A stretch of 57,363 nucleotides of DNA, taken from the IMG/VR virus record IMGVR_UViG_3300043466_002831, positions 1-57,363 of that record; one strand, written 5' to 3'. A program made the position numbers and the translations under genes. Numbering within the stretch: the first letter of the stretch is position 1; every line of letters starts with the position of its first letter. Of the stretch, positions 35,219-38,822 are shown one piece after another. The notes below the pieces were generated by a model, which saw only the letters and a program-made list of their open reading frames with translations, was not told the origin of the DNA and did not search any database. The stretch is from a virus (Duplodnaviria; Heunggongvirae; Uroviricota; Caudoviricetes).

Positions 35219-36616
35219 ATGAAAAAAATACTCAAAGAGACAGGATTAAGAGATATTAATGCCTTGGCTAAAAGATACCCAAAGGCGGAAATATACTTCC
35301 ACCAAGATTTGGATGGAGTGACGACTGCAATCGCGATGAAAAGGTACCTTGAAGACAATGGTATTGATGTAGTAGGTGCTCACATAATCCAATACGGTGA
35401 CAAAGAATTCTCAGTTAAAAAGAACGATGCACAGGGAGACGTGATGCCAGTTCTTGTGGACTTTGCTCACGGTAAGCCAATGTTCGTAATTCATACTGAC
35501 CACCACGACAAACAAGTTGGTGTGGAAAAAGGAACTTCAAAACAATTTAGAGGTGCACGTTCAAATGTCGAAACTATTTCTCAAGTAGTTTCTCCAAAAG
35601 ATTTATTCCCATCTTCAGATATCTTATTAATCAATACTGTTGATTCTGCCGATTATGCTAAACATGACATTACACCTGATGAGGTGGTTAATTACATTTA
35701 TCGTTTAGATAAAGACAAACCACTCCAAAAAAACAAAATGTTATTAGGTTTGGTTATTAACAAGTTATTGTTGGCGTTTAAAAACAAACCAGGGTTTTTA
35801 GAATCTTTAGTGATGGATTCAGAACCTTCTTTAATGTCTATCTTAAATAATATTAAAGATTGGATGAAAAGAACAAACGCGGCAACTCCTGAAGAAATGC
35901 AGAAAAACGCTGAGGGATATAAAGAAAGTATGAAGAATTATCCAAGAGTCAGTGATAGTATCATTTTCCAATATGGTGGTGGTAGTATGTTCAAACCTGG
36001 TTCTTATGATAGATATACACCATTTAGAAACAATCCTGATGCCGATTTTCTTATCATGGCTTGGCCAATGGGATTAGTTCAAGCATCTTGTAACCCATTC
36101 AAAAAAGAAAGAGAGTTAAAAGGTGTTAACTTGGGTGAAATAGCTCAAGAAGTTGTGGGTAAATGGGAAGACCAATTAAAACAAAGAACAATTCCTTTAT
36201 CAACTATTAAATGGGTAAGTGAAACCTCTGTTGGTCCTGAAAGTATTGGGTTCACATTCAAAGATTTCGAAGCGTTGTATGGGGATAAGTTTACAACTAT
36301 GGAAGGTGGTGAAAAAGTATTGAACCACATTCACGATATGATGGAAACACCATTCAAAGATTTAACTGAAGAACACAAAGAGATGTTAGATAAAATTGGG
36401 ATTAACGCTTGGGATTTAATTCAATCAAATTCAGGTGGACACAAATGTATCACAAACATTTCAGGTTTAAATTATTTAGGTAGAGGTAAAAGACCACCTC
36501 AAGGACAATACAGATATGATTCTGAAAAAGATGACTCACCTTCAGTTAAGTTTACGAAGATGATTGCAAATGAGTTTGAAAAGAAACTTAAAGAAAAGAT
36601 TGCCGAATCAAAATAA
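35219..36616 (+). CDS. DHH-family phosphoesterase
   Basis: FHQDLDG, VDFA, HTDHH, SGGH. Confidence 0.75.
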   Translation: MKKILKETGLRDINALAKRYPKAEIYFHQDLDGVTTAIAMKRYLEDNGIDVVGAHIIQYGDKEFSVKKNDAQGDVMPVLVDFAHGKPMFVIHTDHHDKQVGVEKGTSKQFRGARSNVETISQVVSPKDLFPSSDILLINTVDSADYAKHDITPDEVVNYIYRLDKDKPLQKNKMLLGLVINKLLLAFKNKPGFLESLVMDSEPSLMSILNNIKDWMKRTNAATPEEMQKNAEGYKESMKNYPRVSDSIIFQYGGGSMFKPGSYDRYTPFRNNPDADFLIMAWPMGLVQASCNPFKKERELKGVNLGEIAQEVVGKWEDQLKQRTIPLSTIKWVSETSVGPESIGFTFKDFEALYGDKFTTMEGGEKVLNHIHDMMETPFKDLTEEHKEMLDKIGINAWDLIQSNSGGHKCITNISGLNYLGRGKRPPQGQYRYDSEKDDSPSVKFTKMIANEFEKKLKEKIAESK

Positions 36617-36955
36617 GTACTCAATAGTATCACCAGCTTCGATACCTAAATAATCACAGGTACCACCTTCAAGTTCCAATACTATATTTCCATTTCCACC
36701 GTAACTAGGACATTCATTTCCACGACATGGAGGACAGTCGTGATGAATATTTACAATTACATTATTTCTAATGATTATGATATCCAATGGGATGATACAG
36801 TTTTTCATCCAAAAAGATTGTTTATCACCACCCATCAAAAATAGTAAACCATCAAAAGTAGAATCAAACCTTTTACCCATCATTCCGATTGCTTTTGATT
36901 TTCGGTCTATTAAAGTTTTAACATTAAATATATTGTCGTTGATTCTAACTTGCAT
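36608..36955 (-). CDS. DUF192-family protein
   Basis: GMM..., FWMKNCIIPLDII, VLELEGG. Confidence 0.9.
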   Translation of the reverse strand: MQVRINDNIFNVKTLIDRKSKAIGMMGKRFDSTFDGLLFLMGGDKQSFWMKNCIIPLDIIIIRNNVIVNIHHDCPPCRGNECPSYGGNGNIVLELEGGTCDYLGIEAGDTIEYLF

Positions 36956-37242
36956 ATCTATAAATACAAATAATAGTGGAATATGACTTATTTTAAACTT
37001 TTTTATAAAAAAATTTGACTTTTATTAAGTAATGTAGTACTTTTGTAAGTGTTGGAGATATTTATAGTTTCAGTCAGAAATGACGGACATCCCCAAAAAG
37101 TTTCATAATATATATTTGACAAGATGAGAATTTTGTTTTAACTTTGTGAAACAATTGAGATGAGAGTCTCAAAAAAAAATGTCCCACAGGCATTTGATTA
37201 TTCGAAAAAATAGTTTTATCTTTGTGGGACATTACTTTGAAA

Positions 37243-37263: not shown

Positions 37264-37337
37264 CGCGAGGTAGTAGCAGTGGTCAGCTCGTCAGGCTCAT
37301 AACCTGAAGGTCGGAGGTTCGAATCCTTCTCTCGCTA
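37264..37337 (+). tRNA. tRNA-Met(CAT), initiator-like; CCA not encoded
   Basis: CGCGAGG/TCTCGCT acceptor with unpaired C1, anticodon arm TCAGG-CTCATAA-CCTGA, T-arm GGAGG-TTCGAAT-CCTTC. Confidence 0.95.
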
Positions 37338-37400
37338 CTAAACAAAAAAAAGTTTACAAAAGATTTGGAAAATCGAAAAAGTATACTTATCTTTGTAAAA

Positions 37401-38330
37401 CAATTAAGAAAACGTTCTTTGAATTAAAGATATTATCCGTTCAGGAAACACAAAAGTGTCGGTGATATTATCCACCGAGTAAATGGCAGAAAGTCCGCAG
37501 CTTGAGTGTAACTGATAAAGATATTGGGCGGTCTATAGTCCATAAAATAAACCATGAAAGTGGTATAAAGTGAATCATTTGGTTAAGTGGTTTGCGGCTT
37601 TCGAAAGAGAGCTCGAGTAGACAAGCGAGATATCGTTAGACCTTGAGTACCGAGGGTGACACTGTAGGGAAACTGGTTTGATGACCAAGCGATGTGGGTC
37701 GTTTGGTTGAGATGGGAACATCAATAAGAATAACTCGTAGAATTATTACAAGACATACGGTCATCCAACCGTACAATTGTGTGATTCATTACAAGAGTGG
37801 GTTTAAAACCGAAAGGTAAGAGGTCGTACAGGTGGTGCTGTTGTCTCCTTCTTAATTTCTCTACCAAGAGAGTTAGGATGAAACAAACTTGAAGTATGAA
37901 GATAGGGATATCTTAGGGAGTAGTTAAGTATCGTGTCGTTCAAAAGATGACATGGCTTGGTCGGCGAACCGCTACTTTCATCATCCACAACCGCAAACTT
38001 TGTTAATTAAGGTTTAACAACTAAAAGATACAAGGAAAAGCGTTCGCCAGTCGTGATTGACAGGTCACTACATAGTCATGAGATGTTCATGGCCGTAAAG
38101 GGTCCCAAGCCCAATACGATTGTTGTGAAAGTTCTCTAAGTCCGCAAGACCGAATCAGGGTGGCAACCTTGAAGAGCAACGAGTAAAAACAGAGTAGATT
38201 ACGACTTAAGGATTGGTTAATCTAATTGACCGTGACTGAGAATTACTATTCAAAAGATAGTGGAAATCGGAGGAAAAAATAATCTCCTGTAAAGATTCTC
38301 ATACGAAGGTGTATTCTCAACCTGAAGCCA
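37401..38330 (+). ncRNA. giant structured ncRNA, GOLLD-like
   Basis: no credible ORF; own promoter and terminator; many helices; size and tRNA-adjacent phage context match GOLLD RNA; boundaries approximate. Confidence 0.7.
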
Positions 38331-38332
38331 AG

Positions 38333-38367
38333 AACCCCGACAAGAAATTGTTGGGGTTTTTTGTTTT
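38333..38367 (+). terminator. intrinsic terminator ending the large ncRNA
   Basis: AACCCCGACAA-GAAA-TTGTTGGGGTT plus T-run. Confidence 0.85.
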
Positions 38368-38396
38368 ATATCATTTTTTGTATTATCTTTGTTCCC

Positions 38397-38822
38397 ATGA
38401 AAGAGGGAGTCAACATAGTGAACAGAAGAGCGAAGCACGAATACGAGTTCTTGGACACGTATCAAGCGGGTATGGTCTTGACTGGTGTTGAGGTTAAATT
38501 CATTCGTGATGGTAAGTTATCTTTTGTTGATTCTTATTGTATGTTCCATGATGGTGAGTTGTTTATGAAAAATGTATCCATCTCTGGTATTGGTACAGAC
38601 AATATCAAAAGAGACCGTAAGTTGTTACTCAGGAAACGTGAATTGGTTAAACTTCAAAAGAGTTTGGACAAAGGTTTGAGTATTATCCCTTACCGTATTT
38701 ACCAAAAGAAAAACACCCTCAAGGTTGATATCGTTCTTGCTCGTGGTAAAAAATTACATGACAAGAGACAGACCTTGAAGGAAAAGGATATTCAAAAAGA
38801 AATAAGTAGAACATTAAAATAA
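38397..38822 (+). CDS. smpB: SsrA-binding protein SmpB
   Basis: NRRAKHEY, AGMVLTGVEVK, RDRKLLL, LARGKKLHDKR; start moved to 38397, own promoter 38360-38391. Confidence 0.92.
   Translation: MKEGVNIVNRRAKHEYEFLDTYQAGMVLTGVEVKFIRDGKLSFVDSYCMFHDGELFMKNVSISGIGTDNIKRDRKLLLRKRELVKLQKSLDKGLSIIPYRIYQKKNTLKVDIVLARGKKLHDKRQTLKEKDIQKEISRTLK

Follow-up and report, generated by a model that had tools for sequence, protein, structure and literature searches.

A full-length gene for GOLLD RNA lies on the plus strand at positions 37401-38330 of the stretch of viral DNA analysed here (the window, 57,363 nucleotides, the first part of IMG/VR virus record IMGVR_UViG_3300043466_002831). When the whole window was scanned with Rfam 15, the output at gathering thresholds consisted of two matches, a tRNA at 37264-37337 and GOLLD (RF02032) at 37916-38323 on the plus strand, the latter with 327 bits (E 5.6e-93), the gathering score being 150. 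The alignment extends over positions 1-416 of the 416 positions of the model, is untruncated, and contains four non-canonical pairs only. The score was reproduced in the complete IMG/VR record, where the gene is present in a single copy. This record is linear, 137,752 bp long and estimated to be 47% complete, which implies a phage genome near 290 kb; it is a fragment of a large lake phage. A sequence-only reading of the same DNA had proposed a GOLLD-like RNA beside a phage tRNA, had named the Rfam scan as the check, and had kept a new giant RNA class in reserve. The scan gave GOLLD over the whole model, and this agrees with the size, the origin from a phage, the tRNA alongside, the dedicated promoter and the terminator; with a complete RF02032 match in the 3′ half and homology to the GOLLD RNA env-38 in the 5′ half, the fallback of a new giant RNA became needless. 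The possibility that the RF02032 match is a fragment of another element was also considered, and was excluded by the full-length match together with the covariation described below.

The RF02032 model represents only the 3′ half of the GOLLD family. As regards size, for which about 800 nt or more is expected of a GOLLD RNA, the core of the present copy (37524-38323) measures about 800 nt and the entire unit about 930-970 nt. The layout is in two parts: the 3′ region, which is conserved throughout the family, is preceded by a 5′ region whose conservation is lower. As regards location, the gene stands in a virus record, with the end of a tRNA-Met (the phage tRNA seen earlier) 62 nt before the proposed start of GOLLD. 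Loops of the contact types (A-rich, GC/CG symmetric kissing, GAAA and terminal) are all found in the window and are conserved or covarying in 66 homologues. The gene is complete and ordinary; its family has been described and includes a solved homologue, and the RNA class is already known. We hold with high confidence the proposal as a whole, namely that this is a GOLLD gene with its own transcription unit, whose product would form a cage like that of env-38 and may have a role near translation.

The 5′ domain and its homologues

The gene is divided into a 5′ domain (37524-37915, plus strand), corresponding to the cap domain in the env-38 cage and recognized by homology to env-38, by the copies described in this section and by covariation, and a 3′ domain (37916-38323, plus strand), which is the RF02032 region and is supported by the full-model match and again by covariation. 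A BLAST search of a phage collection with the 5′ half found relatives of it in two huge phages, uncultured and of 635 and 642 kb, and in both a full 3′ domain of GOLLD follows shortly after the 5′ match. A conserved 5′ motif, AAATAAAC-N3-GAAAG-N4-ATAAAGTGA, served for a search of IMG/VR, where at least 120 contigs were found to contain it. Using an nhmmer profile of the whole unit, at least 108 full-length homologues were identified on viral contigs (E 1e-128 to 1e-293), and these collapsed to 66 representatives below 90% identity, which are 60-89% identical to the copy in the window.

Homology between the 5′ core and env-38 begins with the first nucleotides of the env-38 construct, and the two are alignable along its length from position 37524 onward. 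Since the construct begins opposite 37524, the core was defined as 37524-38323 (about 800 nt, compared with 833 in env-38) and positions 37401-37523 were taken as an extra leader. The env-38 sequence was machine-read from the supplement PDF and conflicts in places with the published alignment file, and was therefore used for overall homology only and not for mapping at the level of single bases. Among 185,579 species-representative prokaryote genomes, this type of 5′ domain gave only three matches (L147-L149), all on small MAG contigs, and the scan of these genomes with the 5′ motif yielded no clue to the host. The three are short contigs assigned to MAGs of Woesearchaeota and Methylocystis, and are probably misbinned phage contigs.

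Secondary structure and loop motifs

The alignment of the 66 sequences was folded with RNAalifold, which gave a consensus of 39 helices and 226 pairs. In the paired columns 94.7% of the cells are canonical, a share that falls to about 40% if the 3′ partner is displaced by 1-3 columns. Covariation across related phages, put forward earlier as a further check, supports both halves of the RNA in the 66 representatives: 44 of the 115 pairs assigned to the 5′ domain (neither partner lying beyond 37915) and 47 of the 105 in the 3′ domain lie above the 99.9th percentile of a background of 40,000 random column pairs that were scored identically. The sequence-only reading had named five helices, four of which are real, covary in the 66 homologues and rank with the best supported. 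These are the helix at 37684-37707, with 9 of 10 pairs compensatory; the ACC-GAAA-GGU helix at 37808-37817; the helix at 37933-37953, which is contained in a P13/P14-like hairpin (37926-37958, 12 of 13 pairs compensatory) with a UUCAAAAGA loop; and the helix at 38215-38231, contained in a hairpin at 38214-38232 with 5 of 7 pairs compensatory. For the fifth, TCGGTG/CACCGA at 37459-37478, the inverted repeat is real, yet it is confined to a variable leader insert that is present in some relatives only. Two 3-bp long-range helices proposed by RNAalifold (37615-37623 with 38310-38318) showed zero compensatory change and were discarded.

An all-against-all covariation search added helices beyond those of RNAalifold, including a P13-like stem (37916-37924 with 37971-37979), a helix closing the linker (37963-37973 with 38039-48, seven compensatory pairs), a pseudoknot (38063-38068 with 38232-38237) and a terminal hairpin (38307-38323) with a GUAUUCUCA loop. 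Covariation was also found for six bases of the hairpin loop at 37694-37699, which pair with 37983-37988, and in which the two sides switch together among the homologues (UGUGGG:UCCACA, UACCGG:UCGGUA, UCCGAG:UUCGGA, UGCAGG:UCUGCA and UGUAGA:UCUACA). In the cryo-electron microscopical study of env-38, a covariation-supported pairing to J13/15 was reassigned as a bridge between chains (PMC12286853), and the pairing of 37694-37699 with 37983-37988 may be that same contact.

Within the 5′ domain (plus strand throughout), there is a GGUGGUG hairpin loop at 37831-37837 together with two GAAA hairpins, and the 3′ domain contains a variable linker (~37989-38038), GC-containing loops at 38143-38147 and 38162-38165, and a second UUCAAAAGA loop at 38249-38257, which is conserved in the 66 homologues. 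The repeat of a loop sequence noticed earlier is exact, with TTCAAAAGAT at 37939 and at 38249, and both copies are conserved GOLLD loops (UCAAAAG), whereas by number alone two copies are not significant (17 of 100 shuffles). The GAAA loop closed by ACC/GGU, a GGCA loop and the GUAUUCUCA end loop are likewise conserved, and one further loop alternates between CGCAA and GUCGAA, i.e., from GC to CG. Such a GC/CG switch has been described in L21a of GOLLD (PMC12286853), and we infer that the alternating loop corresponds to it. The loop names used (L14, L21a, L21b, L26, L27, L11a and J13/15) were assigned from the text of that paper and by sequence likeness, not from its figure; under these names, the RNA keeps the loop motifs that the env-38 study reports or implies as contacts between chains.

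A proposed separate transcription unit

An exact copy of TTTG-N20-TAtcTTTG, which we take to be the -33/-7 promoter design of Bacteroidota, stands at 37364-37395 on the plus strand (-33 TTTG, -7 TAtcTTTG), where a promoter had been read from the sequence alone. The pattern is enriched in the window, with 17 occurrences against 3.6 +/- 1.9 expected (0 of 100 shuffles reached 17), and is kept at this site in the close relatives L004-L016; a generic sigma-70 scan found nothing at 37364-37395. From its position, the GOLLD transcript would start near 37401. There are three successive copies of the motif on the plus strand, one ahead of the tRNA-Met (37193-37224, an exact match that presumably serves the tRNA), one ahead of GOLLD, and one ahead of the smpB gene that follows (38360-38391, a pattern match whose -33 TTTG lies inside the T run of the GOLLD terminator). 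The motif was found in 32 of the 66 GOLLD representatives, and in 24 of these the leader motif follows its end at a distance of 17-28 nt.

This leader motif, GUUCUUUGA (37414-37422, plus strand), was recognized by its conservation and is situated about 18 nt after the promoter, and GTTCTTT[GA] is found upstream of the core in 65 of the 66 representatives. As the 9-mer GTTCTTTGA, it also follows the promoters ahead of both tRNA arrays of the record (133179 and 136936 in G000:C1), and it occurs six times in the genome against 1.7 expected. The boxA element of rRNA leaders has the form GCUCUUUA in E. coli and GUUCUUUGAAA in the Bacillus type, and we take GUUCUUUGA to resemble it. Like the boxA leaders of rRNA operons, which act in NusB/NusE antitermination, the U-rich motif stands soon after a promoter and before a long, untranslated, structured RNA, and this likeness makes it reasonable to suppose that a Nus-dependent mechanism would shield the long untranslated transcript from Rho. 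The comparison, made with these E. coli and Bacillus-type sequences, draws on the likeness of the motif and on its position before stable-RNA genes. The 9-mer is, in addition, almost complementary to both UUCAAAAGA loops of GOLLD, and all three sequences are invariant. Between it and the core is a variable leader (37427-37523, plus strand) with lineage-specific hairpins, including that at 37459-37478, which are replaced or absent in relatives and which lie upstream of the start of the env-38 construct.

The downstream boundary is an intrinsic terminator at 38330-38371 (plus strand), as strong as had been claimed, with a 14-bp stem (38330-38361), a 4-nt loop and a subsequent T run; in distant relatives the terminator hairpin is maintained by means of different stem sequences. 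In the proposed course of events, the host RNA polymerase would start at the -33/-7 promoter (37364-37395), the boxA-like leader would let it cross about 900 nt of untranslated and highly folded RNA, as in rRNA operons, and transcription would halt at the hairpin. In the folded ~800-nt core, the 5′ part would then form a cap domain and the 3′ part a ring domain, and the core would assemble, protein-free, into a hollow homo-oligomeric cage like that of env-38. For the present RNA, such an assembly would be an extrapolation from one solved homologue.

Neighbouring genes

The tRNA-Met upstream of GOLLD (anticodon CAT, 37264-37338, plus strand) was found by ARAGORN and scores 50.6 bits with the Rfam tRNA model. 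When the identity rules of initiator tRNAs are applied to the Rfam alignment, it appears initiator-like: positions 1 and 72 are mismatched (C1-U72), A11:U24 and A73 are present, and the anticodon stem has two G:C pairs at its base. The tRNA of several relatives has C1-A72 and GGG:CCC. The C1-U72 seen here takes the place of the C1-A72 that is usual in initiators, close relatives having C1-A72 or U1-A72, and the D stem carries an additional U, which falls between positions 10 and 11 of the same alignment. Elsewhere, in a phage of more than 630 kb (L002), a tRNA-Met at 1736-1813 of the locus abuts the 5′ end of GOLLD; no promoter separates the two, and this points to their co-transcription, with processing of the tRNA type, in that phage. 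In another phage of more than 630 kb (L003), a tRNA is located directly 3′ of the end of GOLLD according to Rfam (the accessions of L002 and L003 are LR745206.1 and LR756502.1).

On the other side, the gene for SmpB, the tmRNA-binding ribosome-rescue protein, occupies 38397-38822 on the plus strand (Pfam SmpB 8.9e-45), and the protein exceeds the cut-offs of two NCBIfam equivalogs (NF003843, 150.5 bits with a cut-off of 130; TIGR00086, 148.8 bits with a cut-off of 119.1). It starts 67 nt after the end of GOLLD. With its ATG placed 5 nt after the -7 box of the promoter, smpB probably has an mRNA with no leader or almost none. A search for tmRNA in this 47%-complete record and in the fragments of close relatives (18-47% complete) gave sub-threshold matches only, the strongest of them on tRNA genes.

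Further upstream are a gene for a 465-aa protein (35219-36616, plus strand) and one for a DUF192 protein (36608-36955, minus strand). The former gave only a sub-threshold match to DHH, and none among solved structures or NCBIfam. The two largest clusters of upstream neighbours, comprising 32 and 30 of the 113 GOLLD loci listed, match the DHH-like and DUF192 genes in size and orientation, and both families also flank smpB in two relatives that lack GOLLD (L162 and L173).

GOLLD, tmRNA and smpB in other phages

The wider survey was based on 113 unique GOLLD loci among the matches listed, which had been found by the 5′ motif alone and are thus unbiased for rescue genes. A tmRNA was present in 35 of these 113, downstream of GOLLD in 33 and upstream in 2, and nine of the loci listed contain convergent GOLLD/tmRNA pairs that are 107-149 nt apart as measured by the nhmmer envelope. 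All 14 tmRNAs tested among GOLLD loci were confirmed at the Rfam cut-off. A gene for smpB was found in only 3 of the 113. Within the larger set of 123 unique related loci, a tRNA is located at most 400 nt upstream in 38 of the 120 that were judged, and in 34 of these 38 it is a tRNA-Met. ARAGORN detected one of the eight tmRNAs that Rfam found in smpB-linked loci; it misses most phage tmRNAs, and its counts therefore understate the link between GOLLD and tmRNA. Examples of this type of GOLLD next to a phage tmRNA, from the loci L019-L138 and L150-L229, are L132:2974-3892, L042:1131-2083 and L185:2021-4193.

The association was also approached from smpB, using a scan with a phage SmpB profile in which 80 loci were listed of 384 matches. 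In 29 of the 80 phage smpB loci listed, GOLLD precedes smpB on the same strand, and 17 of those 29 have it immediately before the gene, no more than 110 nt from the smpB start. The GOLLD-linked proteins include some that are only 47-55% identical to the SmpB encoded in the window, and ten such loci were confirmed by Rfam. On the SmpB tree, the GOLLD-linked genes fall into three clades and have two flanking contexts. One clade, which has different genes on both outer sides, keeps the terminator, the promoter placed over the T run and an ATG 4-5 nt after the -7 box, and its tmRNA is found 0.1-1.5 kb beyond smpB. The design of the intergenic region is nearly identical across clades whose SmpB proteins are about 48% identical, and is conserved in all three. 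The gene order in one SmpB clade is GOLLD, smpB, one to three small genes and a tmRNA on the opposite strand, the last confirmed by Rfam in eight cases. In the literature, no paper was found that treats GOLLD as a neighbour of tmRNA or SmpB.

Comparison with known systems

GOLLD env-38 was solved by cryo-electron microscopy as a homo-14-mer of D7 symmetry, a nanocage composed of RNA only (Kretsch et al., Nature 2025, PMC12286853). The same study reports a ribosome pull-down for GOLLD, places env-38 downstream of a tRNA-Met, and describes the 5′ region as less conserved across the family (PMC12286853). The present RNA shares with env-38 the two-domain layout, a homologous 5′ domain and a variable linker after a P13/P14-like hairpin, as well as the UCAAAAG loops (twice), GAAA, GUAUUCUCA and GC-containing loops of the kissing type; both originate from uncultivated aquatic phages and lie directly downstream of a tRNA-Met. 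Unlike the env-38 construct, it has about 123 nt of extra 5′ leader, which contains the boxA-like motif and a lineage-specific hairpin, its linker is without a tRNA, smpB follows, and its description comes from sequence.

The GOLLD RNAs of a Lactobacillus brevis prophage and of Mycobacterium tRNA arrays are expressed as stable RNA (PMC6582537). They belong to the same family and have a similar mobile or phage context near tRNA genes, but, unlike the present copy, their hosts are cultivated Gram-positive bacteria, in which they reside in prophages or tRNA arrays. ROOL, too, is a large phage RNA found near tRNA islands and forms an RNA-only cage; its sequence and structure are unrelated, however, and nothing in the window reached the ROOL gathering score in the Rfam scan.

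Alternative explanations

That the region might belong to a new class of giant structured RNA with no kinship to GOLLD would agree with the lack of an Rfam match of their own for the 5′ 515 nt, RF02032 spanning the 3′ 408 nt only. The 3′ half, however, is a full-length GOLLD match, and the 5′ half can be aligned with the corresponding domain of env-38 and is always fused to a GOLLD 3′ domain in the at least 108 full-length homologues, and we give this explanation practically no credence. The same slight weight is attached to a protein read by an alternative genetic code or by recoding, an idea raised by the stop codons that are reassigned in some huge phages and by two small plus-strand ORFs of 31-41 aa in the region. 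Each plus-strand frame of 37401-38330 contains 17-25 stops, and the longest stop-free run on this strand is 44 codons, as opposed to 291-310 in the flanking genes, in line with the ORF-free island that the sequence-only reading had described. That reading had also allowed that a recoded ORF would overturn it; no frame spans the region under table 11 or under any single stop reassignment, the longest run then being 114 codons, and the region stays closed whichever stop is read through. The neighbouring genes translate cleanly under table 11, and the substitutions in homologues are compensatory base-pair changes. Composition and folding set the region apart as well, with a GC content of 0.40-0.43 compared with 0.25-0.35 in the flanks, the G-richer island noted before, and with an MFE z-score of -4.05, i.e., it folds better than its shuffles. 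It has further to be asked whether GOLLD is a free-standing RNA at all or a long cis-acting leader (a 5′ UTR or riboregulator) of smpB, which follows on the same strand 67 nt on, with a spacing of 66-69 nt in 13 GOLLD-adjacent loci from two of the three SmpB clades. Between GOLLD and smpB, nevertheless, stand a strong terminator and a second promoter, both conserved; smpB is found in just 3 of the 113 unbiased loci listed; other genes are inserted between GOLLD and smpB in L152-L156, L182 and L200; and in related phages smpB has the same synteny without GOLLD. We consider a cis-acting leader very unlikely.

Phage manipulation of translation is the most likely area in which GOLLD, as a free-standing RNA, would have its role, because tRNA-Met and smpB adjoin it, tmRNA and smpB are near it in related phages, and ribosome binding has been reported; being drawn from the neighbourhood, this link is offered as a lead and not as a result. 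We lean slightly towards the explanation that GOLLD is found near tRNA, tmRNA and smpB merely through islands of stable-RNA and translation genes, in which case the neighbourhood would be uninformative on function. It has long been known that GOLLD occurs near tRNA islands (PMC12286853, PMC6582537), the flanking gene order F4-F5 ... smpB-F2 is the same with or without GOLLD (without it in L162 and L173), and the GOLLD labels are grouped on the SmpB tree in the way that descent would produce. Against this, the tmRNA is the nearest gene in the nine convergent pairs separated by 107-149 nt, none of which has a tRNA within ~400 nt of GOLLD; tmRNA shows a side bias of 33 downstream versus 2 upstream; and the cassette of GOLLD, terminator, promoter and smpB is seen in two flanking contexts despite a divergence of SmpB to ~48% identity. 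The more specific idea that GOLLD is a working partner of the phage trans-translation genes, with tRNA-fMet, GOLLD, smpB and tmRNA forming one module and the cage holding, sequestering or presenting SmpB-tmRNA, initiator tRNA or stalled ribosomes in the infected cell, seems to us rather unlikely; its clues are the cassette in three SmpB clades and two flanking contexts, the convergent tmRNA pairs, the tmRNA in 35 of the 113 loci listed and the reported ribosome pull-down.

Implications

For the annotation of this phage, the gain is a large RNA gene whose promoter, boxA-like leader, core and terminator are defined. For the family, the approximately 190 related loci indicate that this type of GOLLD repeatedly adjoins tmRNA, smpB and an initiator-like tRNA, and that its leader motif is held in common with tRNA operons. 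The association may reflect inherited gene order; the neighbourhood and the leader nonetheless direct attention to translation, ribosome rescue and Nus-dependent read-through, and to SmpB, tmRNA and ribosomes as the partners to be considered.
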